Source: a bacterium (lineage in GTDB: Bacteria > Zhuqueibacterota > Zhuqueibacteria > Oceanimicrobiales > Oceanimicrobiaceae). From it: a DNA stretch of 64,000 nucleotides. Each line of letters starts with the position of its first letter. Within the stretch, counting starts at the first letter, position 1. The DNA is taken from the NCBI GenBank assembly GCA_037446635.1, contig JBBIIG010000014.1, positions 16,294 through 80,293 on the forward strand. Reading direction: 5' to 3'. The position numbers were made by a program, and so were the translations under genes. Below, in pieces: positions 7,831 through 62,100 of this stretch. The notes under the pieces are model-generated. The model was not told the origin of the DNA. It made no database searches and worked only from the letters and a program-made list of their open reading frames with translations.

Positions 7831-8062
7831 CTTCGTCCTCCTTAATAAGGATTCCTGATTGAGTTTAATTGATTGGTGATGATCATCACTACGGTCGAAG
7901 GCAAGGTGTATGCCACCTGAAATGGCGCAGGAAAATACCAGAGGCAATGGACTGATTATCTAATGGCTTAGGAGACCATCAGACATGTTTTGAAGAGAAT
8001 GAATGGTAGGAATAGAATCTTTGGGATTTCGTAGAACCGCGAAATATCACAGAAAAATGGGG

Positions 8063-29701: not shown

Positions 29702-29998
29702 CCGGAGTGAAACGCTTTAGCGTTGCAGTTTCCCTGTGGAGTGCCAAACTTTAGTTGGCCTACGTCACCTAAAGCTTGACACTCCTCGCCTGCGCAAACT
29801 TTTCTCACGCCATTGCAAACCCTGCGCATACCAATTTTTCAACGACTCAATTGGGCGCGTTAAATCACGAATCGTAAACCATCACAAGATTACCACTTAA
29901 CGCCCCTCGATTGTGACGCGACCGCGCTGGCATCGCCTTTGCGTGATGAACGTCCAAACCAATTCACCCAATTTATTTCAAAAATAGGAGGATTTGTC

Positions 29999-40842: not shown

Positions 40843-41823
40843 TTGACCCATTTTTTTAAGACGATTTTTTTGGTCTTTTGCCTGCTGGTCTCCGCCACCA
40901 CGGCGCTGGCGCAGGCCGGTAAGGCCGGCGCCTTTTTACGGCTGGGCGTCAGCGCCCGCGCCAAAGCCATGGGCGACGCCTACACCGCGATGGCGCGTGG
41001 CGCCGAAGCCAGTTATTACAATCCGGCGGGATTGCCTTTTCTCGAGCACAAGGAAGTTGCGGCGTCGTACTGGCTGCTTTCCCTCGATCGCCAATTCACT
41101 TACATCGGTTTTGGATTGCCCATTCACCCAAAGGAAGATAGCACTGGCCGCGGCGCCTTCGACGGCGGCTTCGCGCTTTCGTGGATTCACGCCGGCGTGG
41201 ACAATATCGATGGCCGCGACACCGACGGCCAGTCCTTTGGCGACATCTCCAACTCGGAAGACGCGTTCGTGTTTTCGTTTGCGCTGAATCCGGTGCAGAA
41301 ATTATCGCTGGGACTTTCGGTGAAGATTTTGTGGAACCGCTTTCCCGATCTCGGAATTGATGGGCAAACCATCTCCGCCACCGGCGTGGGCTTCGATTTT
41401 GGCGCCCTGCTGACGCCGGCGCCGTGGCTCACGTTGGGCGTTTCGGTGCGCGACATCAATTCCAAATATACCTGGAACACGCAGGATTTGTACGGCGAAG
41501 ATGACGGCTCCGAAACCACTAACAAGTTTCCAAAAATTTTGCGGGTGGGCGCCGCCTTTCAGCCGCCGCAAATTCCGAACGTGACCTTGGCATTTGATTT
41601 TGAGGACAGCAAAGAGCTGGACAACCGGGTTCACTTCGGCGCAGAGGCGGTACTGGGAAACCATCTGTTTCTCCGCAGCGGCTTTGATGACGGTTCGCTC
41701 GCTGCCGGCGCCGGCTACGGTTTCGGCGTGTTCGGCAGGATGTCGCAGATCAATTATGGCTTTGCCTCCGCTGGTGACCGTCCGGAGGCCGAGCATGTTT
41801 TCAGTTGGGTGTTTCAGTTTTAG
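40843..41823 (+). CDS. PorV/PorQ-like (UPF0164-type) outer-membrane beta-barrel protein
   Basis: Signal peptide. 'GAFLRLGVSARAKAMGDAYTAMARGAEASYYNPAGL' is the N-terminal signature of the PorV/LptO-like barrel family. C-terminal aromatic residue (…WVFQF). Confidence 0.55.
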   Translation: MTHFFKTIFLVFCLLVSATTALAQAGKAGAFLRLGVSARAKAMGDAYTAMARGAEASYYNPAGLPFLEHKEVAASYWLLSLDRQFTYIGFGLPIHPKEDSTGRGAFDGGFALSWIHAGVDNIDGRDTDGQSFGDISNSEDAFVFSFALNPVQKLSLGLSVKILWNRFPDLGIDGQTISATGVGFDFGALLTPAPWLTLGVSVRDINSKYTWNTQDLYGEDDGSETTNKFPKILRVGAAFQPPQIPNVTLAFDFEDSKELDNRVHFGAEAVLGNHLFLRSGFDDGSLAAGAGYGFGVFGRMSQINYGFASAGDRPEAEHVFSWVFQF

Positions 41824-41825
41824 GT

Positions 41826-41930
41826 GTCGCAAATCGGAAATCGGAAAACGGAAATCGCAAACCGGAAAACGTAAACCGTAAATCGGAAATCGAAAAACGT
41901 TATTCGATTTCCGTTATTCGATATGCGGAA
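41826..41930. repeat. tandem array of AAATCGGAAA(A)CG units with AACGTTATTCG motif; related copy at 37129-37190
   Basis: 'gcaaatcggaaatcggaaaacggaaatcgcaaaccggaaaacgtaaaccgtaaatcggaaatcgaaaaacgttattcgatttccgttattcg'. The 37129-37190 copy is 'ttttcgaaaatcggataacgttattcggttttcgatttccgatttccgaat'. Confidence 0.6.
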
Positions 41931-41947
41931 TTGCATAGGAGTACAGC

Positions 41948-42868
41948 GTGAGAAATATTCAAATTACAACCGTATTGATTTGCTCGCTCGGCGTTTTTTT
42001 GAACTCAGCCTTTGCCCAAACCGGCAGCGCCGGCGCCACCGGGCTGGCGTTTCTGAAATTGGGCGTTGGCGCGCGCGCTAACGGCATGGGGGAGGCCTTT
42101 GTCGCGGTTGCCAATGACGCCGCCGCCACGTTCTGGAATCCGGCCGGTCTTTCCCAACTCGAACGTTCGCATTTCACCTTCACGCACAGCGAATGGATTC
42201 AGGATATTTCCAGCGAGTTTCTGGCGTTGGCGTTTCCGGCTTTTGGCGGCGTGACCGGCTTCAGCGTTTACGTCAACAATGTGGGCGGCATTGAACGCCG
42301 CGTCAACCCTTCTGAAGAACCGCTTGGAACCATTGACGCCAACGATGTTGCTCTGGGCGTCTCGTATGGCCGCTCGTTGGGTTCATCCATGCAGGCCGGC
42401 ATCACGGTAAAATATCTTTACGAGAAAATTTACCTGGAAAGCGCTTCGGGGTATGCTTTTGATTTCGGCCTGAATGTTCAACCTTTTGGCAGCGCGTTAA
42501 ATTTGGCGGTCGCGGCGCAGAATTTAGGCTCAATGAATGAGCTGCTGGCCGAGTCCATCGATTTGCCGAAAACCCTGCGCTTCGGCGCCGCTTATTCGTT
42601 TCCGCTGGCCGCGCTCGATGGCGCGGTGGTGCTGGCTGCAGAGGGCGTCAAAGTTGTGGAGAACGATCTGCGCGGCAGCTTCGGCGCCGAAGTGCAATTG
42701 AAAAAAATGCTGGCTTTACGCTTGGGATACCAGAGTGGCTACGAGGATAGAAGCTTGGCCGGCGGGTTTGGTTTGTCCTTCCAGCGCTACCACCTCGATT
42801 ATGGCTACACCCCGGTTGGTTCGAATTTAGGCGATACCCATCGTTTTTCCTTCGGCCTGGATTGGTAA
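41948..42868 (+). CDS. second PorV/PorQ-like outer-membrane beta-barrel protein (paralogue)
   Basis: 'GLAFLKLGVGARANGMGEAFVAVANDAAATFWNPAGL'. Ends '...FSFGLDW'. Confidence 0.55.
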   Translation: MRNIQITTVLICSLGVFLNSAFAQTGSAGATGLAFLKLGVGARANGMGEAFVAVANDAAATFWNPAGLSQLERSHFTFTHSEWIQDISSEFLALAFPAFGGVTGFSVYVNNVGGIERRVNPSEEPLGTIDANDVALGVSYGRSLGSSMQAGITVKYLYEKIYLESASGYAFDFGLNVQPFGSALNLAVAAQNLGSMNELLAESIDLPKTLRFGAAYSFPLAALDGAVVLAAEGVKVVENDLRGSFGAEVQLKKMLALRLGYQSGYEDRSLAGGFGLSFQRYHLDYGYTPVGSNLGDTHRFSFGLDW

Positions 42869-49264: not shown

Positions 49265-49783
49265 ATGAGTCCACAGCTCCGCAATTTCCCTTTCGTGGTT
49301 TTGATTTTGCACTTTGCGGCGTGCTTCAATCCTTTCGCTCCGAGCCTGGATAAAGCTCCCGATTTCTCTAACATCATTACCGAGCAGCGAAGTCCGGAAG
49401 AGGTGCTGCAGAATTTTAAATATGCCTATACTTTCAAAGACTCTCTCCTCTACCACGACGTTTTGGAAGAGTCGTTTGTATTTGAATATTTCGATCCCAA
49501 TCTCGCGCCTTCGGGCGGGTTTCGCACCTGGGGCCGCGATGTTGACTTAAAAACGACTGGCCAGCTTTTTCGCAATTTTGACGTGATTGACCTCGAATGG
49601 CTGGCCACCCTGTTTTCAGAATCGGACGGAGAATTTGAGCGGCGGTTCATGCGATTCAACCTGAATCTGGTCGGGCCTAATTTTAATTTTATTGTGAGCG
49701 GGACCGCCATTTTCACCTTCCGGCGCTCCGACCTCGATAACAAGTGGCGGATCGTCCGCTGGAAGGATGAATCGGATCTCTAA
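49265..49783 (+). CDS. hypothetical lipoprotein
   Basis: Signal plus lipobox 'LILHFAACF'. No family recognised. Confidence 0.45.
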   Translation: MSPQLRNFPFVVLILHFAACFNPFAPSLDKAPDFSNIITEQRSPEEVLQNFKYAYTFKDSLLYHDVLEESFVFEYFDPNLAPSGGFRTWGRDVDLKTTGQLFRNFDVIDLEWLATLFSESDGEFERRFMRFNLNLVGPNFNFIVSGTAIFTFRRSDLDNKWRIVRWKDESDL

Positions 49784-49958
49784 CAGCTAACAGGCTGTTT
49801 GAAACTCACCTGGAGTTTTTTAGCAACCTAATGTAACCCAAGTAAATTTTCCGGAATATTTTTTTTGAAGCCCATGTTCACTCTTTTGAATCACGTCAGA
49901 AGTATCGCCCAGTTCTTATTCCTGTGTAATTTAATTAAGAGCATTTTGGAGGATTTCG

Positions 49959-50615
49959 TTGATGGAACAAGAGTGTCGCCGCTTTTCAAATCTAATCACC
50001 GCGCTGGTGGATGACGAATTGCAAAGCGCAGAAAAGAGTGAAGTTGAAAATCACTTCAAAATCTGCCCCCCCTGCCACCAGCGCTATCAGAATGAAAAGC
50101 GGGTTAAAAGGGTGGTTGCCGATCGTTTGCCTGTTATCAGCGCGCCGGCGTATCTGGTGCAGCGAATCCGCCATCATCTGCAATCGGGCAGAGCGTGGCC
50201 GGGTTTCTGGGAGTTGCTGCGCGATTTGTTTGTTTACCATCCTCTTTCTGCATCCTTTGCGGCTGCGGCGTTGATTTTAATCGTGGCGCTGCCGACATAT
50301 TTTCTCTCCATCCACCGTGATCAGACCGCGAATTTCGCGGGTGAGTTGAATGGCAAAGTTGTTGAGCTCCAGGGGCAAATCATCTGTTTGGATTGTGCAT
50401 ACACCTATCACGATGAACAGAATCAAACGCCGCACACTGAGATTCATCGCATCGGGATCCGCTGCGCCGCCGATCAAATCTGGACGTTTCTTGATACCCG
50501 TCCGCACCAGGAACTGCTGCACGATCCGAAGTATTTGCAGCGGAATGTTCTCGTCAAGGGCGTCGTTTATCAAGATGCGCGCTATGTTTTCATTAAAGAC
50601 TACCAACTATTGTAA
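49959..50615 (+). CDS. putative zinc-finger (zf-HC2) anti-sigma factor-like membrane protein
   Basis: N-terminal 'HFKICPPCHQRYQNE' (H-x3-C-x2-C), a TM segment (AAAALILIVALPTYFL) and a Cys/His-rich C-terminal domain (CLDCAYTYHDEQNQTPHTEIHRIGIRC). No ECF sigma gene adjacent. Confidence 0.5.
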   Translation: MMEQECRRFSNLITALVDDELQSAEKSEVENHFKICPPCHQRYQNEKRVKRVVADRLPVISAPAYLVQRIRHHLQSGRAWPGFWELLRDLFVYHPLSASFAAAALILIVALPTYFLSIHRDQTANFAGELNGKVVELQGQIICLDCAYTYHDEQNQTPHTEIHRIGIRCAADQIWTFLDTRPHQELLHDPKYLQRNVLVKGVVYQDARYVFIKDYQLL

Positions 50616-50657: not shown

Positions 50658-51560
50658 ATGTTCAAACGAATCAGCGTGGTGGTTAATCCCGTTGCTGGCG
50701 GAAAGAAAGACAAATCGCAGCTCATCGCCAGGCTCACGAAGTTGCTTTCCGCCCCCGGGCGCAGCCTCTCCATTCAGTACACCGAAAAATCCGGCGACGC
50801 CAACCGCTTGGCTCGCGAAGCCGTGCAGCAAAATTCACAGCTCGTGGTGGTGATCGGCGGCGACGGCACCGTAAACGAAGTCGGCTCGGCCCTGGTTGAT
50901 ACCGACGTGCCCATGGCCATTATCCCGCGCGGCTCGGGAAACGGCTTTGCCCGGACGCTGCGGCTGCCGCCGCAATTAGAAGACGCCGCGGCTTTAATCA
51001 ATGATGGAGCGATTTCGCTAATCGACGTTGGGCAGGCGAACGAGCGCTACTTTTTTATGCTAATGGGAGTTGGCTTTGATGCCCGGATCGGCGAGCGATT
51101 TAACGCGCACTCCTCACGGGGGCCGCTGCCGTACTTCTATCTCAGCGCCAAAGAATTTTTTAACTACCGGCCCGCGCCGCTTCAAATCAACTTCAACGGA
51201 AAAGCTTTAGCGCTGGCGCCGTTTATGATTATCATCGCCAACGCCCAGCAGTTTGGCAACAACGCGCGCATAGCGCCGCACGCGATTTTGAACGACGGCC
51301 TGCTCGATATTTGCATCGTGCGCCGCCTCTCTTTTTTCGATCTACTCTTCGCACTGCCCAAACTTTTCAGCGGCCGCATTCACAATTATTCCGGTGTCGA
51401 GTTTTATCAAGCCCAACAGGTTCAGTTACAGCGCGAGCGCGCGGATTTTATCAACCTCGATGGCGAAGCCGTTTGGGAGGAAGCGGTGGTCAACGTTAGG
51501 GTGCTGCCGCGGCGCCTGAAAGTCATCACCCCAAAATTTTGCCCGGCGTTGGCGCCATGA
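50658..51560 (+). CDS. diacylglycerol-kinase-family lipid kinase (YegS/BmrU-like)
   Basis: 'ISVVVNPVAGGKK', 'VVVIGGDGTVNEV' (the GGDGT motif) and 'IPRGSGNGFAR'. Confidence 0.8.
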   Translation: MFKRISVVVNPVAGGKKDKSQLIARLTKLLSAPGRSLSIQYTEKSGDANRLAREAVQQNSQLVVVIGGDGTVNEVGSALVDTDVPMAIIPRGSGNGFARTLRLPPQLEDAAALINDGAISLIDVGQANERYFFMLMGVGFDARIGERFNAHSSRGPLPYFYLSAKEFFNYRPAPLQINFNGKALALAPFMIIIANAQQFGNNARIAPHAILNDGLLDICIVRRLSFFDLLFALPKLFSGRIHNYSGVEFYQAQQVQLQRERADFINLDGEAVWEEAVVNVRVLPRRLKVITPKFCPALAP

Positions 51561-52213
51561 ATTCTCTGGTCATTTTTGTCAAACATCCCGCACCCTACAA
51601 GGTGAAAACCCGGCTCGGAGCGCAAATTGGTTATGCCTTAGCCGCCGACTTGTATAAAATTTTTATTGAACAAACCATCACGATGGCGGCGCGCAGCTCC
51701 GCCGACCGCGTGTTGATTGCGTATGAGTCGGCCGAGCGCGCTGACGACGTTAATTTGGCATTGCCCGCGGCGATGGCGGCGTTTCCGCAAACTGGCAGGG
51801 ATTTAGGCCAGCGGATGTTCAACGCTTTTCAACACACGTTTGCAGAAGGAGCCCATTCCACCGTGATCATCGGCAGCGACAGCCCCACGCTGCCGCGGCA
51901 TTTTCTAAAGCGAGCGTTCGATTATTTGGAACATAAAGATTTAGTGCTTGGCCCGGCGCAAGATGGCGGCTATTATTTGATCGGTTTAAAAACTCCCGTG
52001 CAAAAACTTTTTGAAAACATCGAATGGAGCTCGCCAGTTGTTTTGGAAAAAACGCTGGCGCGCGCCGAACAATTGCAGCTCTCTTTTGATTTGCTGCCCG
52101 TCTGGTACGACGTCGATGAAATCGAATCGCTGAAGCGCGCCGCCCACGATGACGCCAGCGGCCAGATTAAAAACTTCCTGCTGCGAAACTGTCCCACCAT
52201 CCAGCTTGATTGA
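51557..52213 (+). CDS. DUF2064 / TIGR04282-family nucleotidyltransferase-fold (CofC/MobA-like) protein
   Basis: 'LVIFVKHPAPYKVKTRLGAQIG' matches the DUF2064 N-terminal signature. 'IIGSDSPTLP' and 'LGPAQDGGYYLIGLK' are nucleotidyltransferase-like motifs. The ATG overlaps the upstream stop (ATGA). Confidence 0.65.
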   Translation: MNSLVIFVKHPAPYKVKTRLGAQIGYALAADLYKIFIEQTITMAARSSADRVLIAYESAERADDVNLALPAAMAAFPQTGRDLGQRMFNAFQHTFAEGAHSTVIIGSDSPTLPRHFLKRAFDYLEHKDLVLGPAQDGGYYLIGLKTPVQKLFENIEWSSPVVLEKTLARAEQLQLSFDLLPVWYDVDEIESLKRAAHDDASGQIKNFLLRNCPTIQLD

Positions 52214-52214
52214 A

Positions 52215-52910
52215 ATGATTTTAGCCGCCCACCAACCTGGCTATTTGCCGACGATTGATTTTTTCTACAAAATGTCGCGCGCGGATGTTTTTGTTTTGGC
52301 GGACGATCTGGTTTTTACGACCCACTCGGATATTAATCGCGCCAAAATTAAAACCGCCCGCGGCCCGAGTTGGCTGACGGTGCCAGTTCGCACGAAGAGC
52401 CGGCGCGGCCAGCTCATTCATCAAGTCGAAACCGATCACCAGCAAAATTGGCGCGCCAAGCATTGGAACACCCTGCGCATGAATTACGCCTACGCGCCCT
52501 ATTTCGAGCTGCACTCCGACTACTTTGAAACTCTTTACTTGTTCGGCGATCCTCCGGCCCGTTTGTTTGAATGGAACGCCGCCGTCATCGATTATCTCGC
52601 GGCCTCGCTGAAATTAAAAACTAAATTGATTCGCAGTTCGGGCCTTAACGTTCACGCCCGCGGCCAGGAGTGGGTTTTCGGCGTCGCCGCCGCCACTGGC
52701 TGTCGCACTTATTTGGCGGACGCAGCCTTCGCGAGGTATCTATCAAAAGAAAAATTTGCTCAACATGGACTCGCCCTGCAATTCTTGCAAAATCCCAAAT
52801 TGCGATACCACCAACAATTTGGCGATTTCATCAGTGGACTTTCTATTGTCGATCTCCTGTTCAACGAGGGAGAACGCAGCCGCGAAATTTTGATGGAGAA
52901 CTCGCCGTGA
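52215..52910 (+). CDS. WbqC-like family protein
   Basis: 'MILAAHQPGYLPTIDFFYKMSRADVFVLADDLVFT' is the typical N-terminus of the WbqC family (PF08889). Start 2 nt after the upstream stop. Confidence 0.6.
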   Translation: MILAAHQPGYLPTIDFFYKMSRADVFVLADDLVFTTHSDINRAKIKTARGPSWLTVPVRTKSRRGQLIHQVETDHQQNWRAKHWNTLRMNYAYAPYFELHSDYFETLYLFGDPPARLFEWNAAVIDYLAASLKLKTKLIRSSGLNVHARGQEWVFGVAAATGCRTYLADAAFARYLSKEKFAQHGLALQFLQNPKLRYHQQFGDFISGLSIVDLLFNEGERSREILMENSP

Positions 52911-53590
52911 AGGTAGTCGTCATCATCCCGGCTTTCAATGAGGAGCAGTCCATCGGTCTGGTTTTACAGGATATTCCGCGGCAGCTTGTTGACGCCGTGA
53001 TCGTCGTCGATAACGGCTCGCGCGATCGCACTGCGGAACTCGCCCGGCTTGGCGGCGCGGAGGTGGTTCGCGAAACACGCCGCGGCTACGGCAGCGCCTG
53101 CCTCGCCGGCATTAAACACGCAAAAACAATGAACCCCGACGCCGCGGTTTTTCTCGACGCGGATTTCAGCGATCACCCGCAGGAGCTGGTCGCACTTTTG
53201 GAAAAGATCGAAAGCGGCTTCGATCTTGTCATCGGTTCCCGCACTCTCGGAAAGGCCGAGCCCGGCGCGCTGCTGCCGCAGGCGCGTTGGGGAAACTGGT
53301 TGGCGGTTTCGCTGATTAAATGGTTCTTTGGATTTCGTTACACCGACCTCGGGCCATTCCGTGCCATCAAGTGGGACAAGCTGTTGGCGCTGGATATGCA
53401 GGATCGCAACTTTGGCTGGACCGTTGAAATGCAGGTGAAGGCAGTAAAAGCAGAATTGCGGATTACCGAGGTTCCGGTGAGTTACCGCAAACGCATTGGC
53501 ATCTCGAAAGTAACCGGCACGATTTCGGGAACCATCAAAGCCGGTTACAAAATCATTTTCACCATCTTAAAATATGCGTTTCGGAAATAA
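52907..53590 (+). CDS. family-2 glycosyltransferase (TIGR04283-like)
   Basis: 'KVVVIIPAFNEEQSIGLVLQDIP...VIVVDNGSRDRTAELAR' and a 'DAD' motif region. GTG start overlaps the upstream TGA (GTGA). Confidence 0.7.
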   Translation: MKVVVIIPAFNEEQSIGLVLQDIPRQLVDAVIVVDNGSRDRTAELARLGGAEVVRETRRGYGSACLAGIKHAKTMNPDAAVFLDADFSDHPQELVALLEKIESGFDLVIGSRTLGKAEPGALLPQARWGNWLAVSLIKWFFGFRYTDLGPFRAIKWDKLLALDMQDRNFGWTVEMQVKAVKAELRITEVPVSYRKRIGISKVTGTISGTIKAGYKIIFTILKYAFRK

Positions 53591-53594
53591 CGAG

Positions 53595-53700
53595 CAGAGC
53601 GTCTCCTGTTCGCTCCCACGCGGGGCGTGGGAGCGAGAGAGCTCTCGTGGTAGCAAGAGGCTACTGAATGACTTGTTCCCACGCTTTTTGCGTGGGAACA
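53595..53700. terminator. pair of hairpins sharing a CCCACGC...GCGTGGG core between convergent genes (bidirectional terminator)
   Basis: 'gctcccacgc-gggg-cgtgggagc' and 'cttgttcccacgc-tttttg-cgtgggaacaag'. Confidence 0.55.
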
Positions 53701-53705
53701 AGCTG

Positions 53706-54290
53706 CTAAAAACTCGCGCCAGACAAGGCCTGTGAATGAGGATGTGAATCGGCGATGACGGTGACATATTTTATCATCACCGAGTATTTGTTGGCAAGCG
53801 ATTCCACCGGGTTGACGCGAATTCCAAAATTATAAAAAAAGGATTTTTCGTCGCTGTCAAAACAGGCGCGCAGCGGCGCCCTGCTGCAGTCGAACAACTT
53901 GATGGCCAGCAGCGAAAAATCGAATTCAAAATCCAGGGCAAGATCATAACTCGATTTTTGCAGATGCTGCTTGAGCGCGTTTTTGGGCAGGCCCAGCAGG
54001 TTGATATCTTCTTTGGAATAGGGCAGGATATCCAATTTGAGGCGGCTGTCGATAAAACTCACCATTTCAAGTTGAGCGACCACCGTGATGCGCCAGTTCG
54101 GGCGCTTTTCCCGCAGCTTCTCCAAAGCTTTGAGCGCGACGCCAAAATGCTCGACTTTAACCGGCATGAAAATTAAAATTTTCTGCGCTTTAGCCAATCG
54201 TTCCACCACGTCAACCGCGCCTGCTTTTTCAGAAATTCGAAATTTCAATCGCAGCGCCGCGCTGGCAAGTTTAGCGAGAGGAGGAGTCAT
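53706..54290 (-). CDS. hypothetical protein (weak resemblance to the N-terminal domain of GT9 heptosyltransferases)
   Basis: 194-aa ORF, last gene of the minus-strand operon. 'AQKILIFMPVKVEHFGVALKALEKLREKRPNWRITVVA' resembles a GT9 N-domain. The assignment is weak. Confidence 0.35.
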   Translation of the reverse strand: MTPPLAKLASAALRLKFRISEKAGAVDVVERLAKAQKILIFMPVKVEHFGVALKALEKLREKRPNWRITVVAQLEMVSFIDSRLKLDILPYSKEDINLLGLPKNALKQHLQKSSYDLALDFEFDFSLLAIKLFDCSRAPLRACFDSDEKSFFYNFGIRVNPVESLANKYSVMIKYVTVIADSHPHSQALSGASF

Positions 54291-54355
54291 TCGAGTAGCG
54301 AGAGTTGGTTAGCCATTTTGGCGGAATATAATCATAAAACCCGTTTCGAGCAAGA

Positions 54356-56344
54356 TTAAATTTTGAGATCGATTTGCACGCCGAAGCGTCGGTCGCGTTG
54401 GCCTTGAATTTCGTCGGCGCCGCTGCCGATGACGTCGGTATCGTCGCGAAAGGTCTCCGCATATTTCGCCGAGAACCCCATGAACCTGAACTGGTAGTTT
54501 ATAAGTACATACCAACGCGCGCCCTCGCCGAATAAGCTGCGGTTGGTGGCCAAGCCGGGCAGATCGGGCTCGTATTGAAACACCGCGGAGTCGAAGGAGT
54601 CGGTGTCAAAAATGGTTAAACGCGCGGTCAGGGTCAGGGCTTTCGTGGGCTGGAGGCGAACATCCTGGTACATCAAAAAACCCTGCTCATCGGTTTCTGC
54701 GACCGCCGAGTTGAAGCGATTCGTTTTGAACGAAACGAATTCCCAGCGGCTGCGCAACCGCAGCTGCCGGCTGAGATCGTAATCCAATTGCAGCCGCCCC
54801 TGCCGTTTTAGAATCTCAACGAATTCGCGCCGCTCCCGCATTAATTCATCCTCGAACGTTTCAGTTTCTTGTTTTTGATTTTCGCGATAGCGCAGCGTCA
54901 GCCGCAGACGGTTGGAGAATCGCTGCTCAATCTGCGCCAAAAATTCGTTGCCATCGAACGGCAGCGGCTCAAAAAACGTCCGCCACGGATGGGTGAAAAT
55001 ATCGTAGTAGGCGCTGACCGCGGTGCGCTCGCCAATTTTGAAATGAAGGCCGGAATAATACCCGCGCTCGTTTTGGGTGCTGCCGTTGGCGTCGGCGAAG
55101 GCGAAGCCGTGCAGGTTCTGAAAATCTTTTCCGTAATCGCGAAACAGAAACGCCAGTTGGATTTTTTTGAAGTCGAGCAGGGCGCCGGCCAGCAGCGCGC
55201 GGCCGCCGTTTTTTGATCCCGCTGCTTCTCCAAAAAGATTGGCGCTGGGAATTCGCCAATCCCAGTGAAATCCGGCCACGGCGTTTTTTCTGCCGCGAAA
55301 TGCGAAGCGCTGCCGGACAAGATCGGGATCGTTGATGGTTTTGTCGAATTTTGAAAAGTAAAAGCTGCCGCCAACCGTAAGCTGCAACGGCAGTTGCAAT
55401 CGCAGCGCCGCGCCGGCCAGCGATTCCGTGAGCGCGTCCTTTTTGCTGAGCTCGTTTTCGTTGCGGTGGAAACCAGTGGCGAAAAGTCCGGAGACTTCAT
55501 TTTCGGAAGTGAGAGTAGCATCCAACTTGGCGCGCGACGCAAAAATGGTGGCGGCGAAATGTTTCAAAGTCACATGCGCGACCCCGCCGTGCAGCGCGGC
55601 GTTTTCATCTACTGTGCTGTAGCCGCGAAATTCACGGCCGCGTTTTTTGATGGGGAAAATCGCGTCGGCGCTTTTGGAAAAGCCGTACGGCCCCCACAGC
55701 GTCAGCCCCTGCCCGATTTGCAGCAGATAATTTCCAACCAGAAAAGAGAAGTTTGGGTGGGCGTCCACGGCGACGTAGTAGAGCCGCAGATCGTCCCAGC
55801 GCCGTTCGCCGCTGTCTTTCTCCAATAAAAATCCGCCGGAAATTTTTTCAGCGATTTGATATTGAATGCGGTGATAAATTTTTTGCGGCGAGTAGAGATA
55901 ATCGCCCTCCTCGAAGCCAACCGGCCGATCGACGCGATCGCTCAGCCGGCTGCGCAGGTTGAGGCGAATGCTTTTTGGGGCGGGCCGCGCCGGCTTTTTT
56001 ACAAACACCAGCTCGCGCAAATATTCGTACGTTTCGGCATTCACCCCGTCAACGCGCAGTAATTCTTCGACGCGCTTAAATTCGCCGCGCCGCTGGCGGT
56101 AGCGCAAAATGTTGTCGCGCAGAACCGGGGTGAGTCCGGGAATGATCTCCAATTCCTCCAGCGTCGCCGAGTTGAGATCGAGGGGATATTCTTTCAAGTT
56201 CAAAAGAATTTCGTAAAGCTCGGATTGTTCCGAGCTTTCTTCCTGGCTTTCCAGCAGTTTTTCCGCCATGGTTTCCTGGGCGAAAAGGGGGGCAGAAAGG
56301 CAAAGATAAATTACGAAGAAAGATGTTGTAGATAGGTTTTTCAT
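54356..56344 (-). CDS. outer-membrane beta-barrel protein with N-terminal (periplasm-facing) ComEA-type helix-hairpin-helix DNA-binding domain
   Basis: Signal peptide. 'LDLNSATLEELEIIPGLTPVLRDNILRYRQRRGEFKRVEELLRVDGVNAETYEYLRELV' is a ComEA/HhH domain. About 560 aa of amphipathic beta-strands follow, ending '...RFGVQIDLKI'. Confidence 0.6.
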   Translation of the reverse strand: MKNLSTTSFFVIYLCLSAPLFAQETMAEKLLESQEESSEQSELYEILLNLKEYPLDLNSATLEELEIIPGLTPVLRDNILRYRQRRGEFKRVEELLRVDGVNAETYEYLRELVFVKKPARPAPKSIRLNLRSRLSDRVDRPVGFEEGDYLYSPQKIYHRIQYQIAEKISGGFLLEKDSGERRWDDLRLYYVAVDAHPNFSFLVGNYLLQIGQGLTLWGPYGFSKSADAIFPIKKRGREFRGYSTVDENAALHGGVAHVTLKHFAATIFASRAKLDATLTSENEVSGLFATGFHRNENELSKKDALTESLAGAALRLQLPLQLTVGGSFYFSKFDKTINDPDLVRQRFAFRGRKNAVAGFHWDWRIPSANLFGEAAGSKNGGRALLAGALLDFKKIQLAFLFRDYGKDFQNLHGFAFADANGSTQNERGYYSGLHFKIGERTAVSAYYDIFTHPWRTFFEPLPFDGNEFLAQIEQRFSNRLRLTLRYRENQKQETETFEDELMRERREFVEILKRQGRLQLDYDLSRQLRLRSRWEFVSFKTNRFNSAVAETDEQGFLMYQDVRLQPTKALTLTARLTIFDTDSFDSAVFQYEPDLPGLATNRSLFGEGARWYVLINYQFRFMGFSAKYAETFRDDTDVIGSGADEIQGQRDRRFGVQIDLKI

Positions 56345-56363
56345 TAGCGTTTTCGAAAGTGTT

Positions 56364-56380
56364 AAACCCTGTCAGGGTTG
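56364..56380. repeat. AACCCTGTCAGGGTT palindrome (copies also at 1997-2030 and 37250-37290)
   Basis: Near-perfect 15-nt palindrome. The other two sites carry it as a tandem pair ('taaccctgacggggttcgcaaccctgtcagggtta', 'gaaccctgtcagggtttcaaaccctgacaggtt'). Confidence 0.6.
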
Positions 56381-56388
56381 TAATTTTT

Positions 56389-57513
56389 TTAATTGCTTTC
56401 TAAAGTTACAAATGGTTTGATTTTCTCCAGTTTGTTTTTTCCGATTCCCGGGACGTTGAGTAAATCGTCAATTTTTTGGAAGGGGCCGTTTTGCTCGCGA
56501 AATTCCAAAATGGCGCGCGCCAAACTCTCGCCGATGCCCGGCAGTTTTTTGAGATCATCAATCCTGGCGGAATTGATGTTAATTTTGCCGGGCGGAGATT
56601 CCGGATCCGGCGCCGGTTCGATTTTAGTCGAATCGATAGGCAGGATTTCGGGAGAAACCTCCACCACCGGTTTGGGTTCGGGCGGCGGTTGTTTTCCAAA
56701 ATGAATGGCCAGCGAAGTTTGATGAGTGAGCCCGAGATCGTTGTGGGTGAAGAAGGCGTAATCAATGGCGACGCGCTGGATGGCGACGCCGAATCCCGCG
56801 GAGAAGCGGCTGGGGTGATTGGCCGCGCCGGCGCGAATGGCTAAATTTGCCAGCGGCTTGAATTCGCAGCCGAAACGCGCCTCTGCGGCAAAGCGCACGT
56901 CTTTGAAAATTTCAAAATTCAAAATAAGATTGTTGAGGGGATGAACCGAAACGCCACTAGAAAAAATTTGCGGCGCATGTTCGTCGGTTTGTCCAATGGT
57001 GGGACGGTTGACGTTTTTGGCGACGAATCCAAGATTGATCTCAGACGAGAGTGGTACTAAAATTCCAAGATCGAGTCCTACTGCGCCGCCGGAGCCGTAG
57101 CCCTCGATGTGAACGGTTTGATAGCGCAGGCCCACGCCGTAAAAAAGCTTGCGCTGATAGTGGTGGCTGAACGTTAGGCTGAGCGCCTGCTCGCGGTAGA
57201 GGCCGTTGCCAAAGGTGAGCGCACCCAATCCCACGCGCCGATTCCAAATCGGGAAACTGAGGGCGAGAGTTCCAAAGTTGATCTCGGAAAGCCCGAACGG
57301 CTTTTGATAAAAAATCGCCAGCTCGGTTCCAACCAACTGACCCAACCCGCCGACGTTGAGAAAGACGGCGTCGGCGGTGTTGGCCAGCGCCACATAGGTG
57401 GCGCCCATTCCCAGCGACCGAGCGCCCACCGGCCACTCTTCCGCGCCCACTGGCTCTGGAACGTACAATAGTGCAACCACCGCGAAGAAGAAAAAAATCT
57501 TGCGTTGAGTCAT
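56389..57513 (-). CDS. PorV-like outer-membrane beta-barrel protein with C-terminal ComEA-type helix-hairpin-helix domain
   Basis: Signal peptide. 'GARSLGMGATYVALANTADAVFLNVGGL' is the PorV/UPF0164-like barrel signature. C-terminal 'ININSARIDDLKKLPGIGESLARAILEFREQNGPFQKIDDLLNVPGIGKNKLEKIKPFV' is a ComEA HhH domain. Confidence 0.6.
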   Translation of the reverse strand: MTQRKIFFFFAVVALLYVPEPVGAEEWPVGARSLGMGATYVALANTADAVFLNVGGLGQLVGTELAIFYQKPFGLSEINFGTLALSFPIWNRRVGLGALTFGNGLYREQALSLTFSHHYQRKLFYGVGLRYQTVHIEGYGSGGAVGLDLGILVPLSSEINLGFVAKNVNRPTIGQTDEHAPQIFSSGVSVHPLNNLILNFEIFKDVRFAAEARFGCEFKPLANLAIRAGAANHPSRFSAGFGVAIQRVAIDYAFFTHNDLGLTHQTSLAIHFGKQPPPEPKPVVEVSPEILPIDSTKIEPAPDPESPPGKININSARIDDLKKLPGIGESLARAILEFREQNGPFQKIDDLLNVPGIGKNKLEKIKPFVTLESN

Positions 57514-57614
57514 CTTCGCCTCGCAACAATTAGCTTGACATTCATTGACGGTTTTATCTATATTTTTTCAAAATCAGTGTAAAATCTGGACACCCATTCC
57601 GGGAGGTCGCGTCC

Positions 57615-58505
57615 GTGGCAACCACGAAACTCTCTTATTTGCGCTTCCAAATGCTTCCCCTCCTTTCCTCGATAAGTTTAGCAATTGCGGTTCTGCTGCC
57701 TTCACGGGCAGCGGCGCAGGCGGTGAAGGCGAACGTGAACGTTATCATCGATAAGCTGCCTATTGAAAAACAGGAAAAAATGAGAAACTTCCACCGCGTC
57801 GTCAAAGACTACATCGAAAACGCCAATTGGTTTTTGGATGACGACGCCGTGCCCATCGAAGTGACCCTGCAAATGTTTCTCACCGATATTCCCTCCAACA
57901 TCGAAGATCGCTATCTCTGCGAGCTACTGGTCTCAAGCGCGGACGTGCAGTACTTCGATAAGCGCTTCCGTTTTCCGTTTCAACCGGGAACGCAATTGGT
58001 TTACAGCGAACAAGCGATTGACCCGCTTACCGGCGTGATCGATTTTTACCTGAACCTGGTTTTAGGCAATGAGCTGGATAAATACAGCGGCTTTGGGGGA
58101 GACGTTTACTACAAACGAGCGCAAAGCATTGCGGCGCTGGGCAAGTTCGTGCGCACGGAATTTGTGCGCGGCTGGCCCGAGCGCGAACAACTGATTAAAC
58201 GGGTGTTCGAGGAGCCATTTATCACCTTCCGCAAAATGAAGGATTTCTATTTTTATGGGCTGTACGTCCGCGAAAAAAATCTCGCCGACGCCCGCAAAAA
58301 TGTGAAGATTGCTTTGGACATGCTCGAAACTGTCATCGAGAAGAAAGGCGATCTGGATGAGCCGCGACAGTTTTTAAACGCGCACTACTTGGAGTTTATC
58401 GATCTTTTCAAAGACTACGAAAACAAAAAAGAGATTTTCAAAAAGTTGATCAAGTTAGATTCGGCTCACAGAGAATTGTATGAAGCGCACGTTGGGGAGT
58501 CGTGA
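57615..58505 (+). CDS. secreted hypothetical protein (DUF4835-like)
   Basis: GTG start and signal peptide (LLSSISLAIAVLLPSRAAAQA). 296 aa with no catalytic motifs. Confidence 0.5.
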   Translation: MATTKLSYLRFQMLPLLSSISLAIAVLLPSRAAAQAVKANVNVIIDKLPIEKQEKMRNFHRVVKDYIENANWFLDDDAVPIEVTLQMFLTDIPSNIEDRYLCELLVSSADVQYFDKRFRFPFQPGTQLVYSEQAIDPLTGVIDFYLNLVLGNELDKYSGFGGDVYYKRAQSIAALGKFVRTEFVRGWPEREQLIKRVFEEPFITFRKMKDFYFYGLYVREKNLADARKNVKIALDMLETVIEKKGDLDEPRQFLNAHYLEFIDLFKDYENKKEIFKKLIKLDSAHRELYEAHVGES

Positions 58506-59136
58506 GTGAACAGCGACAATTTATAAATTGTTTGGAATAAGTCAAGAGCTTTTTTTCACTGACATCATTTTATACATTAGTATTACGCAACAAGTACACT
58601 CTTTAGTATTTCAATTACGGTCGAAGTTTTGATTGCGACAGATCAGTGAAAGGCAAGGGAACCGTGACTACTGTGCCACTTGTAAGTGTGCCCACGCTTC
58701 GTCCTCCTCTGGGCGATTCCAATCAACCGCCAGGGCTTCTTCCCTTAGCAGGGCGGTTATATTCAGTTTTTTCGTCAAGAGCTAAGATGGTTACAGGCGC
58801 ACGATTAAATGGATGGGGACGAGCTTTGATCAACCCACGGGCGTGCCGGATGTCTCGGCCAATGCAATTGGGATTGGATATCGGCATCCTCGTGCAAAAC
58901 CTGTTTCCACACTGGACGCTCTCCAGACAAAGCGAGTCGTTCCCCAAACGCTTTCGCAAGTTTGACCGCCCACCTGCGGCTGGGTTTCAGGGACTCTCCT
59001 TTGGCCTGGCGCTGGCCTGTTGACTGTCGCCGGCCAACTGTTGGCGGATTTGGGGCCGGGTGAAATTAGGAAGGCTTCAGTCGCAAATCTCAAAATGGTT
59101 TGGAAGAGATTGCCCAGATAATCCGTTAGCTTAAAC

Positions 59137-62100
59137 TTACCGCATCACCACCAACTTCTCCACCACCTCCACCTGCTCGTCGCCGCGGCGGGCGATGAGT
59201 TTGTATAAATACACGCCGTTCGCCAGCGCGTCGCCGTCGAAGTCGCGGGCGTTCCAGTGAAATTGATTGAAGCCGACGCGCGCCGGTAGAAAGTCCGCTT
59301 CGTGGATCAGACGGCCCGCGACGGTGTAAATTTTCAAGCGCACTTCATCGGCGTCCTGGGAGAGAATGTAGGTGAACGCGGTTTCGTTTTGAAAGGGATT
59401 GGGATAGTTCAGCACCTCGGTGATCTGGAAACGCGAGCTCACCTGAAACGCCTGCTCGAAATAATTGAGGTTGCCAGACGGGTCGCGGGCAAACACTTCG
59501 ATTTGATGATCGCCCTCGGAAAGGTTTGCGGTGAACAGGACCAGCGCTTTCAAATCGCGCTGCTCGGGGTTGGACTGCGGCAGAAATTGCGCCTGGCTCG
59601 CGCCGCTGCCGTAACTCACCTTTTGCTGATCGAGATAGACCACCACCTGCGAGGTGTCGGTGAACTGCGCCGGTCCGCGGTCGCGGATTTCCACCACCAC
59701 TTGCGGCGCGGCGGAAACAAAATCGCCGGCGGCCACCGTGCGGCCATCCATCTGTACGCGGATGACCGGCGCCAGCGTGTCGCGCACCACCCATAAACTG
59801 AAATCAGCGGCGTTGTTGGTCTCATCCAATTCCGTGATGCGATCATCCGCATCGAGTCGCACCGTCAGTTCGATTTTTCCGCTCAAACCACTAGTGGAAA
59901 TCAACGCCGGGTATTCGCGGATTTCATCCACCTGCAATCCGCCGACTTTCATTTTCTGCACTTCAGTTGCGCCCCGGAACATACTCACGAAGAAACTATC
60001 AGCGGCGGCGAGGCCAAAGTTGGCCGCGCCGATCGTGACCTGCGCTTCCGCGCCCACTTCGACTGTATCCTGCTGCACGTGAATCTCACTTTTGACGGTG
60101 GCGAGATCCGGCGGCGGAGAAAAATCCACTGACCATGACTGCAGCCGCGGCGTCGTCAATCCATTCGCGCTGGTGAGCGCGGCTGCCAATTGGATTTGTG
60201 GATAAGCCTGCGCCGGGATTTGCGAGAGGTCAATTTCGGCGGCGGAAAAGTTGGAGATCAACGTATCCAATGCGCTGCTGCCGCGCGGTTTTCCGATCAC
60301 CGAAAATATGATTTGATTTTGCTGATCTGATTCAAATGCGAGCCGCGCCGATTTCCACTCCAGCGCCGGCCCAATGAGCGGCGAAATCATGCGCCCGTTT
60401 TTCGCAAAACGATACAGCGTATCCGCGATGGCGATGGCGCCCTCCCCAACTTTTTTCCATTCTTCCGGCACCGTTCCAATGGCCGCACCCTTGCGCCCGA
60501 TGATCGCCCAGGCGTCGCGAAAGCGCACCTGCCGCGTGAATTGGCTGCCGATGCTTTCCAGCGCCAAATAGGCGCTTTCGGTCATGGAGACGCTGCCGTC
60601 ATCGCGAATGGCGGCGAGCACGATTCTGCCCTCTGGCAGCGCGTTGATGAACTGCGCCAGCGCCTCGGCGTTGGCGGTCGCGCCGTAGGTGTCGAAGCTG
60701 GCGCGATCCAGCAGCGCGCCGTCAGTCTCATCGAATACCGCGAGATTGTGGCCGCGCCTGTTGAGACTGACGTGCTCGTCGTTGCGCCACAGCCGCGCAA
60801 AGTTGCCGTCGCTGAACCCCGCCGATTCCGCCAGAAATGAAAGCTGGTTTTGTCGCAGCACCGCAAAGCGCGGCGTCACGCTAACGTTCTCCAAAAAATT
60901 GTTTTCAAATTGTTCGGCGCGCTGCTGCCGCCATTGCCCCGACGTTTGCGGCGAATAGGTGAACGATGCCGTCGCCCACGGCCCAAATTGTTCGCCGTCG
61001 AAGGTGCGGACGCGCCAGTAGTAAACGCCGGCCTGCGAAAGGTTCGGCTGCCAACGCGTGGTCAATCTCCCTTCGTCAATGGGCGGCGAGGCCTGGCGCA
61101 GCGGGCTGTCGAACGCCGCGCTGGTGTCGATTTCAAAAAAATAAACCAATCCCGCGATTTGAATTTTCGAATTGTTGGCGACCAGTTCCGGATTCGCGTT
61201 TTGCACCACGCCAAAATTCAGCGGCTTGATCAAAGTTAAGTCCGATGAGAAAACGGTAACCGTTTGTTCGGCAAAATTGTTGTTTTTGTCTGTTTCCGAA
61301 ATGCGATTTTGCGGATCGATTTCCACTTGAATGCGATACGCTCCGGGTTCATCCGGGAGACGCCACGACACCGTCACCGAATCGCGAAAGCCGGTTGGCG
61401 GGCGGATGAGCGCAGCGATCGGTGTCGAGTTGTTTTCGAAATCCAAAATCGAAATTTGCCCGGCCACGCTGTCAACCGGCTGCAGTCCGAAATTGCGAAT
61501 GACGGCGGAGATGGCCGCCGTGGAATCGGTGGTGAGCAGCAACTCGGGGGCGACGGTGATGTCCTCGTTTTGAATGCTCAACTCCGGTTGTGTGGGAATG
61601 TTCAACGCCAGCGCTGGGTCGCCGATGAGGATGTACTGGTCGATGACAAATTTGCTGCGCGGCTGGCCGCCGAGCCGCTGCCACAGTTGATACTTCGCGG
61701 AAGTGGTCGCCGCGCCCACGCTGCGCAAGGTGTCTTTGGTCACCGCGCGAAACAAACCATCGAGCAGAAAATAATCCTGAGTAATGTACCCAAAGCCCGC
61801 CGAGCCCCAGTATGCCGCTGCGCCGTTGGGGTGCAGCACAAACTCTTCGCTGAGACTGTTCAGCACGGGTTCGGCGAAGCGGGCGGAGTGGCAGGACATG
61901 CCGGTGATGAACGGGAACACCTCGCGGTTTTGCCAGTCGTCCGGGTGGCCGATGTCGATGTCCCACACCTGGCTGCCGGCGTGGCCGATGAAATTAACCC
62001 AGAGAACGCCATCGTGAATTTTCTCCGAAGCGGTACGTTTAAAATTCAGGGTGATGGCCTCATTGGTGGTTTTGTTGTACGGGATGGCGAGGCCGCTGAA

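Follow-up and report, generated by a model that had tools for sequence, protein, structure and literature searches.

Four consecutive genes, encoding a putative lipid kinase, a DUF2064 protein, a WbqC-like protein and a GT2 glycosyltransferase, form one operon that is conserved across the uncultured KSB1 lineage. The genes lie in a stretch of 64,000 nucleotides, the whole of which is referred to here as the window. They are regarded as one unit because they are joined by start/stop overlaps or 1-nt spacing, and because the arrangement recurs in 13 loci while the upstream flank changes. The operon may produce a sugar head group for the cell envelope that is linked to a lipid phosphate and is N-acylated or N-aminoacylated, a reading that is put forward tentatively and at somewhat less than an even chance.

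Layout and conservation of the four-gene block

The locus comprises the following features:
50658..51560, forward strand: lipid-type kinase gene (ATG...TGA; 300 aa)
51557..52213, forward strand: DUF2064 gene (218 aa), in ATGA overlap with the kinase gene
52215..52910, forward strand: WbqC gene (231 aa), with its ATG start at 52215
52907..53590, forward strand: GT2 gene (227 aa), in GTGA overlap with the WbqC gene
53604..53700, no strand assigned: hairpin pair between the convergent GT2 and DUF6913-like genes

Linkage of the four genes by overlaps or short gaps, as claimed in the preliminary description, was confirmed in the sequence, both in its coordinates and as translational coupling. The kinase and DUF2064 genes overlap by 4 nt (ATGA, 51557-51560), the DUF2064 stop codon (TGA, 52211-52213) is followed by one unpaired base and then by the WbqC ATG, and the WbqC and GT2 genes again overlap by 4 nt (GTGA, 52907-52910). 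A mechanical list of open reading frames gives longer versions of WbqC and GT2, starting at 52149 and 52670, respectively. The shorter starts are backed by the N-termini of homologues (MILAAHQP..., MKVVVIIPAFNEE...), by a 231-aa database protein that is 100% identical to WbqC (P0001) and by a 227-aa GT2 that is 92% identical (P0169). Downstream, the hairpin region contains two strong hairpins with 12- and 13-bp stems and the common core CCCACGC...GCGTGGG. Its RNA fold has an energy of -70.7 kcal/mol (z = -6.65 versus shuffles), and the window contains the motif at this location only, against a chance expectation of 0. The pair, which was not called by a consensus terminator scan, is a probable bidirectional terminator at the 3' end of the operon.

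Co-location of the genes in relatives had been named beforehand as a point on which the proposal could fail, and the same four-gene order was recovered in 12 species-level genomes. All four genes were found in the same order and on the same strand at 13 loci in these species-representative genomes (KSB1 and allied MAGs), and also in several metagenome contigs (L001, L002, L008, L092, L093). Nearly every junction in the relatives is an overlap or a gap of no more than about 10 nt, the exception being a 56-nt called gap in L008. Across the block loci, WbqC proteins are 41-60% and kinases 45-65% identical to those of the window, and the flank 5' of the block differs between loci. The arrangement is not due to chance. 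Part of its conservation could nevertheless be inherited synteny, because all known examples of the block come from a single lineage. In its extreme form, this explanation holds that the four neighbours share no pathway and were kept together by common ancestry within that lineage alone, consistent with the confinement of every full block to KSB1-type genomes, the synteny of the downstream genes and the occurrence of each of the four families without the others. Such an account is very unlikely, given that the overlaps are kept at 41-65% protein identity despite a rearranged upstream flank, that other lineages have the DUF2064-GT2 pair independently and in both gene orders, that a fusion of DUF2064 to a TIGR04283-type GT2 exists, and that the kinase-DUF2064 pair recurs on its own.

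Families and predicted folds of the encoded proteins

The domain assignments made at the outset (DAGK-family kinase, DUF2064, WbqC and GT2) were all upheld by HMM searches (PF00781, PF09837, PF08889 and PF00535, respectively). The kinase carries both the catalytic domain (DAGK_cat, PF00781, 6e-32, 110 bits) and the YegS_C beta-sandwich domain (PF19279, 5e-29, 101.5 bits), and its score against TIGR00147 (158.4 bits versus a cut-off of 118.65) places it within that family. The GGDGT glycine-rich ATP motif lies within residues 63-74 of the translation (VVIGGDGTVNEV). PDB relatives are DgkB, BmrU and YegS (1e-23 to 6e-30), while the specific equivalog models for YegS, DgkB-type and MamU kinases are each matched below cut-off; hydropathy revealed no transmembrane segment. 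By sequence, the protein is a member of the YegS/Rv2252/BmrU family and a putative lipid kinase. The kinase-DUF2064 pair is also present without the rest of the block in L091 and L095, and the kinase-adjacent DUF2064 proteins of L091, L095 and L097 fall within the clade of the four-gene block in a neighbour-joining tree.

The DUF2064 protein matches PF09837 (8e-37, 126 bits) and is a member of TIGR04282 (197.9 bits versus a cut-off of 134), a family for which the sequence library searched has over 17,000 cluster representatives. The CofC model TIGR03552 is matched across residues 15-196 (7.7e-10) at 38.7 bits versus a cut-off of 105, so that the protein is homologous to CofC but not a member of the equivalog. 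Furthermore, it matches PDB entry 3cgx (3e-31), and the family profile matches FbiD (6bwg, 5e-4) and a 3-phospho-D-glycerate guanylyltransferase. Its KVKTRL and GSDSP align with the KTRL (NTP-binding) and GDLP (metal-binding D-x-P) of FbiD, and residues invariant in 21 DUF2064 sequences include K15, K17, R19, D108, D136-G-G-Y, D185 and D187, the last two of which would correspond to the second metal site of FbiD. A putative CofC/FbiD/MobA-like GT-A-fold nucleotidyl-transferase is suggested. The likeness to CofC/FbiD and the 3-phosphoglycerate guanylyltransferase covers the full length, with K-T-R-L, D-x-P and a C-terminal D-x-D kept, and extends to the logic of a kinase followed by a nucleotidyl-transferase; unlike CofC/FbiD, however, the protein has neither CofD nor another F420 gene nearby and scores far below the CofC cut-off. 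Scans of most of the larger ORFs in the window found no F420 genes. Elsewhere, DUF2064 proteins occur fused to TIGR04283-type GT2 domains and to class I/II aminotransferases, and are partnered with either type of GT2 as well as with GT-C transferases.

The GT2 protein (PF00535, 5e-21) has a GT-A catalytic domain with a DxD motif (DAD), and in both fold and profile its closest relatives are Dol-P/Und-P sugar synthases. The best HMM matches are the Dol-P hexose transferases AglJ (123.7 bits versus a cut-off of 325) and DPhHxTase, and the protein falls below every NCBIfam equivalog cut-off. It differs from DPMS, AglJ, ArnC and GtrB in having no transmembrane domain by hydropathy, only an amphipathic C-terminal helix; in a fold that is nearly as close to the soluble-acceptor enzymes GpgS and MpgS; and in its coupling to a kinase, DUF2064 and WbqC, all three of which are absent from those systems. 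Human DPM1 is presumably a short form that likewise has no transmembrane segment, so that a missing segment does not exclude polyprenyl-phosphate transfer activity. Outside this lineage, 11 of 79 sampled loci have an orthologue of the GT2 (44-60% identical) directly beside DUF2064, and in approximately 13 of the 79 a GT-C transferase (GT87 or ALG3-like) is encoded no more than about 4 kb from DUF2064, often at the same loci. Characterised GT87/ALG3-like GT-C members use polyprenyl-phosphate sugars. The protein is best described from its sequence as DPMS/AglJ-like ("type A"), a putative polyprenyl-phosphate sugar transferase.

In the preliminary description, DUF2064 and GT2 had been taken for the TIGR04282/TIGR04283 pair ("rSAM/selenodomain-associated transferases 1 and 2") and an arsenosugar-like pathway had been suggested. 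The pairing did not hold, as the GT2 scored only 46.2 bits against TIGR04283 versus a cut-off of 182; genuine partners from other loci scored 230-237 bits. What the two systems have in common is a DUF2064 protein above the TIGR04282 cut-off paired with a GT2. Other DUF2064 relatives of similar identity (approximately 35-44%) occur together with genes for ArsS-like radical SAM proteins (DUF3641), TIGR04283 GT2, VTT/DedA and purine nucleoside phosphorylase (PNP), and the NCBI name of TIGR04282 would point to arsenosugar or seleno-sugar biosynthesis. The window DUF2064, by comparison, falls in its own kinase-linked clade, apart from the ArsS/TIGR04283-linked clades of the neighbour-joining tree. 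Across the 64 kb window, a search for nearby arsS or arsM returned neither an ArsS nor an ArsM homologue; ArsS, ArsS-methyltransferase fusions, PNP and VTT gave no match there as tblastn probes, and Pfam scans of most of the larger window ORFs found no Radical_SAM, DUF3641 or arsenic genes. Arsenosugar or seleno-sugar synthesis is already contradicted by these results and is extremely unlikely here, and for the TIGR04282/TIGR04283 system with ArsS the arsenosugar function is itself only predicted.

WbqC matches PF08889 over residues 7-223 of 231 (1.6e-59, 201.8 bits versus a gathering cut-off of 21.3). Its predicted fold, a Rossmann (HUP) domain, matches BshC and class I aminoacyl-tRNA synthetases, and on this model the protein is a putative ATP-dependent carboxylate-amine ligase. 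The post-strand-1 motif is HQPGYL in WbqC and QQAGLL in BshC. Unlike BshC, WbqC has 231 rather than 540 aa and no coiled-coil (dimerisation) domain, and sequence homology between the two is not detectable, with no BshC match for either the single WbqC sequence or a 39-sequence profile. In vitro reconstitution of the BshC reaction has never been achieved (PMC5790435), and for that reason "BshC-like" does not fix the chemistry of WbqC. The fold link matters for the same reason, as WbqC is a simpler, single-domain relative that might be easier to crack.

WbqC is present in many surface-polysaccharide loci. At 67 WbqC loci without the block, neighbours include DegT aminotransferases (37 loci), PIG-L de-N-acetylases (25) and 4,6-dehydratases (21), i.e. 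enzymes creating free sugar amines. Neither the window nor the block loci that were probed showed this usual context of an amino-sugar or surface polysaccharide cluster: tblastn gave no match for aminotransferase or de-N-acetylase genes in either, and none for GT-C genes in the window. As a result, the amine for acylation by WbqC has no visible source.

Candidate pathway and alternative products

The preferred reading is that of a lipid-phosphate-linked sugar head group. The general idea of a lipid-linked sugar modification had been advanced in the preliminary description, and it is supported by the DPMS-like GT2 and by orthologues of that protein beside DUF2064 and GT-C transferases; the arsenosugar alternative offered with it fell away. 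This reading starts from what was observed: the order, coupling and conservation of the genes, the families and predicted folds of the proteins, and the recurrent pairing of DUF2064 with GT2 and with GT-C transferases. The substrates, the step order and the nature of the product are inferred. The four encoded enzymes are soluble or membrane-peripheral. In the first step, the YegS/BmrU-type kinase would produce a phosphorylated intermediate, either a lipid acceptor phosphate (from polyprenol or diacylglycerol) or a phospho-substrate for the second step, in which the CofC/FbiD-like DUF2064 protein would combine the phospho-substrate with NTP to give an NDP-activated donor. The DPMS-like GT2 would then transfer a sugar from an NDP-sugar to the lipid phosphate at the cytoplasmic membrane face, and WbqC would spend ATP on coupling the amine of the sugar to a carboxylate, that of an amino acid or of another acid. 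A kinase of a lipid-kinase family is an awkward fit for feeding a soluble nucleotidyl-transferase, which speaks against this scheme.

To our knowledge, DUF2064 and WbqC are large families without an experimentally defined reaction. The preliminary description knew of no experimentally defined product for the DUF2064-GT2 pair, and the literature search likewise gave no paper defining a product for DUF2064 or for WbqC. The arrangement suggests a general role for DUF2064 in the NDP-activation of unusual phospho-substrates that are handed to a GT2, which, if correct, would also explain the presence of DUF2064 in predicted arsenosugar clusters. With DUF2064 and WbqC placed between a kinase and a DPMS-like transferase, the compact, coupled operon is a small expressible system for finding substrates. 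We know of no cultured model organism for the KSB1 phylum, and the operon would be a first handle on its envelope glycolipid or glycoconjugate chemistry.

Two other types of product were considered. The first, judged unlikely, is a phosphoglycerate-type anionic lipid head group, like the ceramide (di)phosphoglycerate of Caulobacter or, as a further analogue, the phosphoglycolipid of Thermus/Deinococcus. The kinase would phosphorylate diacylglycerol or ceramide, DUF2064 would make NDP-glycerate from phosphoglycerate (like CpgD and the 3-phosphoglycerate guanylyltransferase), GT2 would glycosylate the glycerate hydroxyl (like GpgS) and WbqC would amidate the glycerate carboxyl, a reaction suited to its predicted adenylate-forming ligase fold. 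Homology of DUF2064 to CofC/FbiD and the 3-phospho-D-glycerate guanylyltransferase is consistent with this scheme, as are the translational coupling of kinase and DUF2064 and their pairing apart from the block. In Caulobacter, a DAGK-superfamily ceramide kinase (CpgB) and a phosphoglycerate cytidylyltransferase (CpgD) build CPG2, so that a lipid kinase and a GT-A-fold nucleotidyl-transferase likewise yield a lipid head group (PMC12275187, PMC9393093). CpgD, however, belongs to COG1213 rather than DUF2064, the Caulobacter pathway (CpgB, CpgD, CpgA, CpgC) has no GT2 or WbqC, and the block has no counterpart of CpgC or of CpgA, a PgsA-like transferase (PMC9393093); the two are alike in their logic and not in the families of their enzymes. 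By HMM and sequence matches, the GT2 is also closer to Dol-P hexose transferases (AglJ, 124 bits) than to GpgS (48 bits), and its orthologues adjoin GT-C transferases.

The second type is a soluble small molecule, either a low-molecular-weight thiol or a compatible solute, built like bacillithiol (BshA-BshB-BshC) or mycothiol (MshA-MshB-MshC). GT2 would join a hexosamine to an acid or alcohol, WbqC would attach an amino acid such as cysteine to the amine of the sugar, and the kinase and DUF2064 would supply an activated precursor. WbqC is predicted to share its fold with BshC and with class I aminoacyl-tRNA synthetases, and we take MshC to be a homologue of the latter. Away from the block, WbqC occurs with glycosyltransferases and, in the 25 of 67 loci noted above, with PIG-L/LmbE-type de-N-acetylases, presumably the family of BshB and MshB, in keeping with the same three-enzyme logic. 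All four block proteins lack transmembrane segments, and GpgS and MpgS, both solute enzymes, are among the fold matches of the GT2. Furthermore, the gene just upstream encodes a ZAS-type (H-x3-C-x2-C) anti-sigma factor whose best NCBIfam match is RsrA of the mycothiol system (45 bits, below cut-off), but this gene is not consistently adjacent in relatives and its product, unlike RsrA, has a membrane segment. The block also departs from bacillithiol and mycothiol synthesis in having a GT2 in place of a GT4 transferase, no de-N-acetylase by tblastn in the window or the block loci probed, and two extra enzymes, a lipid-family kinase and DUF2064, without a role in known thiol pathways. The GT2 is widely distributed and highly conserved, mostly without WbqC, including as a stand-alone gene and beside GT-C genes. 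A soluble product is quite improbable on this balance.

Neighbourhood of type IX secretion genes

Genes for type IX secretion attachment accompany the block in conserved synteny. With the exception of L011, each block locus that extends far enough downstream, like the window itself, continues with three genes, one DUF6913-like, one encoding a PorV/PorQ-family-ComEA fusion and one PorD-like, and in the window a PorU-like C25 sortase gene comes after these three. In Porphyromonas and Tannerella, the Wbp/Vim pathway provides the linking sugar, which carries a 2-N-seryl or 2-N-glycyl group (PMC7468200). Because of the PorV/PorQ-ComEA, PorD-like and PorU-like genes downstream, it is conceivable, at a low probability, that the operon makes a lipid-linked anchor or "linking sugar" for cargo attachment by the type IX secretion sortase in KSB1, with WbqC placing an amino acid on an amino sugar and so supplying the free amine that PorU needs.

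Organization and conservation of the four-gene block

Four genes encoding a YegS-type kinase, a DUF2064 protein, a WbqC-like protein and a family 2 glycosyltransferase (GT2) form a tightly coupled unit, preceded by a membrane anti-sigma factor gene.

Features of the block and the gene directly upstream
49959-50615: ZAS-type (H-x3-C-x2-C) membrane anti-sigma factor; ends 42 nt ahead of the kinase gene
50658-51560, +: kinase gene; PF00781 and PF19279; TIGR00147, 158 bits (cut-off 119)
51557-52213, +: DUF2064 gene; PF09837; TIGR04282, 198 bits (cut-off 134); ATGA overlap with the kinase gene
52215-52910, +: WbqC gene; PF08889, 1.6e-59; start one base past the upstream TGA
52907-53590, +: GT2 gene; PF00535; GTGA overlap with the WbqC gene

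HMM scans against Pfam and NCBIfam bore out all four domain assignments of the preliminary description, and the linkage it proposed is read directly in the two overlaps and the one-base gap. Longer alternative ORFs for the third and fourth genes occur in a mechanical ORF list; the starts used here are backed by homologue N-termini and by database proteins P0001 (231 aa, 100%) and P0169 (227 aa, 92%). Transmembrane segments were detected in none of the four block proteins. Twin hairpins at 53604-53700 (12- and 13-bp stems with the common core CCCACGC...GCGTGGG; z = -6.65) close the unit ahead of a convergent gene, and their motif was found nowhere else in the window. A promoter and terminator scan, with FCB-group promoters outside the tool's coverage, gave no usable promoter and left the hairpins uncalled by its terminator consensus. 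No ECF sigma gene lies beside the anti-sigma gene in the window, while one is present at two related loci (L006 and L007). A 172-aa ORF 5' of the anti-sigma gene (region 49265-50615) has relatives 63-75% identical and no Pfam or NCBIfam match.

In order to examine conservation, one genome per species was scanned with an alignment of 16 WbqC sequences, and the resulting 80 loci were probed by tblastn with the kinase, DUF2064 and GT2. The full block, with order and strand kept, was found at 13 loci from 12 genomes, with locus L030 cut by a contig end. Four of these genomes carry the name candidate division KSB1, two the label 'Cytophagia' and one the label 'Calditrichaceae'; the other five are unclassified. 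Five metagenome contigs (L001, L002, L008, L092, L093) carry further full blocks, and no copy was found outside this lineage in either the genome survey or the metagenome contigs. Across block loci, identity to the window was 41-60% for WbqC, 45-65% for the kinase, 45-62% for DUF2064 and 67-75% for GT2. In the available gene calls, the genes at most junctions overlap by 4 nt or lie 0-10 nt apart; L008 differs, with a called gap of 56 nt. The upstream flank varies by locus (TonB, an ORF and an anti-sigma gene at certain loci, DUF3179 or MscL elsewhere) with the block intact. Because relatives carry the same co-located genes, the four-gene unit is confirmed as real; that it reflects synteny alone, with no shared pathway, is highly improbable.

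Two diverged block copies occur in a single MAG, GCA_046758365.1, on contigs JBHIAC010000035 and JBHIAC010000042 (L006/L012 and L007/L013), with WbqC proteins 51% and 48% identical to that of the window. They reflect either a genuine duplication or the mixing of two related organisms in one bin. One relative, L008, has an inserted GGDEF-domain gene (7297-8457) immediately 3' of GT2. In S. aureus, the soluble diacylglycerol kinase DgkB is reported to be brought to the membrane by a GGDEF protein (2025 paper, PMC11962490). The L008 arrangement is probably a coincidence.

DUF2064 and its glycosyltransferase partner

DUF2064 is homologous to CofC over its whole length (7.7e-10, HMM). The family profile matched 3cgx (6e-58), FbiD (5e-4, with KTRL and D-x-P aligned), a 3-phosphoglycerate guanylyltransferase (0.012) and KdsB. 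Its invariant residues include K15, K17, R19, D108, D185 and D187. The family comprises 17,656 representatives at E <= 1e-3, and no paper in the literature searched mentions DUF2064. Its genomic context was sampled in 80 diverse metagenomic relatives (34-48% identity; 79 counted) plus four DUF2064 look-up loci. At 28 of the 79, a GT2 gene lay no more than about 4 kb away, and in most of these it was directly adjacent; 17 were of the TIGR04283 type and 11 of the window type (44-60% identical to the window GT2, on either side). GT-C membrane transferases (GT87 or ALG3-like) were present at about 13 of the 79, ArsS-like radical SAM enzymes at 9, VTT/DedA proteins at 7 and purine nucleoside phosphorylase (PNP) at 4. 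Among the sampled and look-up loci, a YegS-type kinase adjoins DUF2064 only in L091, L095 and L097. Fusion proteins join DUF2064 to class I/II PLP aminotransferases (P0292 and P0318, 525 and 585 aa), a TIGR04283-type GT2 (P0349, 438 aa), and a glutaredoxin-like CxxC segment or Cys-rich N-terminal domain (P0346, P0355), and no kinase fusion occurs among the best 150 of the 17,656 representatives. The fusions with aminotransferases resemble PntC-AEPT (PDB 6pd1), a fusion protein that activates an amino-phosphonate head group. Based on the neighbour counts and fusion proteins, GT2 is the constant partner of DUF2064, and the most economical role for DUF2064 is NDP-activation of a phospho-substrate later used by GT2.

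A recurrent cluster (L133, L140, L156, L159, L168) combines a DoxD-like membrane protein, DUF2064, a window-type GT2, a radical SAM-SPASM protein and GT87/ALG3-like GT-C transferases, with a Nudix gene in three of the five.

The preliminary description had raised an arsenosugar-like pathway as one alternative, and had noted the TIGR04282/TIGR04283 pairing, sometimes seen with ArsS. This reading is extremely improbable and was rejected: the window GT2 is of the wrong type, scoring 46 bits against the TIGR04283 cut-off of 182; a rough neighbour-joining tree placed kinase-linked DUF2064s inside the clade of the four-gene blocks, with ArsS/TIGR04283-linked and GT-C-linked members elsewhere; and tblastn of the 64 kb window found no ArsS, ArsM-fusion, PNP or VTT homologues. 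Clusters of the arsenosugar type at other loci (L138, L150, L155, L166 and others) do carry DUF2064 with ArsS, a TIGR04283 GT2 and PNP. Their gene content suggests a route in which PNP would convert 5'-deoxy-5'-dimethylarsinoyl-adenosine to the ribose-1-phosphate, DUF2064 would form the NDP-sugar and GT2 would transfer it.

Among the four block proteins GT2 shows the highest conservation, with homologues 62-65% identical in Chlorobi relatives and Thermoanaerobaculia; in one Chlorobi-related genome it stands alone. Top profile matches were the dolichyl-phosphate hexose transferases AglJ and DPhHxTase, the C-terminal helix is amphipathic, and orthologues elsewhere have GT-C transferases as neighbours. 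By fold, DPMS, GpgS and MpgS all fall within 2.5 Z units, a spread that does not separate acceptors.

WbqC and a candidate lipid-linked sugar pathway

Single-sequence and profile searches gave WbqC no relative among solved structures; fold comparison alone recovered relatives, namely BshC-type proteins and class I aminoacyl-tRNA synthetases, followed at lower scores by other class I synthetases and then nucleotidylyl-transferases. WbqC is thus predicted to adopt the 'HUP'-type Rossmann fold seen in adenylate-forming enzymes. The HIGH motif of class I synthetases sits after strand 1, where WbqC has HQPGYL and BshC has QQAGLL, a weak observation made by hand. Invariant residues in WbqC include P8, Y10, D30, N41, R42 and H83. 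Among 67 WbqC loci from many phyla that have no block, neighbours include DegT aminotransferases (37), PIG-L de-N-acetylases (25) and 4,6-dehydratases (21), as well as GT4 and WecA-like transferases, NeuB and radical SAM enzymes. The enzymes adjoining these genes make free-amine sugars. BshC is itself a putative ligase that would attach cysteine to the free amino group of GlcN-malate, and its activity has yet to be reconstituted in vitro (PMC5790435). Fold and context together suggest that WbqC may be an ATP-dependent ligase that attaches acyl or aminoacyl groups to amino sugars. It is quite doubtful that the product of the block is a soluble thiol or solute.

We tentatively favor, at somewhat less than even chances, a four-enzyme module building a lipid-phosphate-linked, N-acylated or aminoacylated sugar. 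The kinase would supply a phosphorylated intermediate (either the lipid phosphate or the DUF2064 substrate), DUF2064 an NDP-activated donor, GT2 would move the sugar onto the lipid phosphate, and WbqC would N-acylate or aminoacylate its amine. This retains the uncharacterised lipid-linked sugar modification of the preliminary description and drops its arsenosugar and TIGR04283 framing. A lipid head group of the phosphoglycerate type, for which the Caulobacter CpgB kinase and CpgD cytidylyltransferase provide a working analogue (PMC12275187, PMC9393093), is unlikely. The kind of operon is familiar, that of glycoconjugate or lipid-head-group biosynthesis; the four-gene combination, in which two orphan families meet two that can be interpreted, has no description in the literature searched, where WbqC, TIGR04282 and the Pfam/InterPro accessions receive passing mentions only.

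At L005 (6001-9215), a relative of WbqC (46% identical) belongs to a block of other composition, listed as methyltransferase, 152-aa ORF, WbqC, B12-binding radical SAM enzyme and UbiA prenyltransferase. The family may serve a further lipid-related purpose here.

Type IX secretion neighbourhood

The block is flanked by a dense type IX secretion (T9SS) neighbourhood (53706-63840; also 40843-42868, 20986-22647, 29939-32740 and 39163-40776). The 3' side of the block begins with a DUF6913-like gene, continues with a gene for a 662-aa helix-hairpin-helix (HHH) protein and then runs through the last three genes listed below.

Type IX secretion genes near the block
40843-42868: two further PorV/PorQ-family genes, upstream of the block
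56389-57513, -: PorV/PorQ-family barrel fused to a ComEA HHH domain
57615-58505: PorD-like DUF4835 protein
59137-63840, -: PorU-like C25 sortase (288 bits, below the cut-off of 420)

Several cargo proteins with T9SS C-terminal sorting domains are encoded upstream of the block. An independent WbqC-PorU association (L017, L023, L024, L025, L039) was rejected, because the tblastn matches there span nothing but a generic T9SS sorting domain at the C-terminus (residues 1478-1567). The T9SS cargo of Porphyromonas and Tannerella is joined through an amide bond to an N-seryl or N-glycyl sugar borne by a glycolipid (PMC7468200). It is very unlikely that the block supplies a KSB1 equivalent of this attachment glycolipid, a proposal that would draw on a ligase-containing operon beside attachment genes and on synteny in one lineage. 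In L001, L014, L020, L021, L022 and L040, the first four genes downstream keep their synteny with the block; in L008 and L092 the first three do so before the fetched sequence ends. Among loci with enough downstream DNA, L011 is the sole departure from this order.
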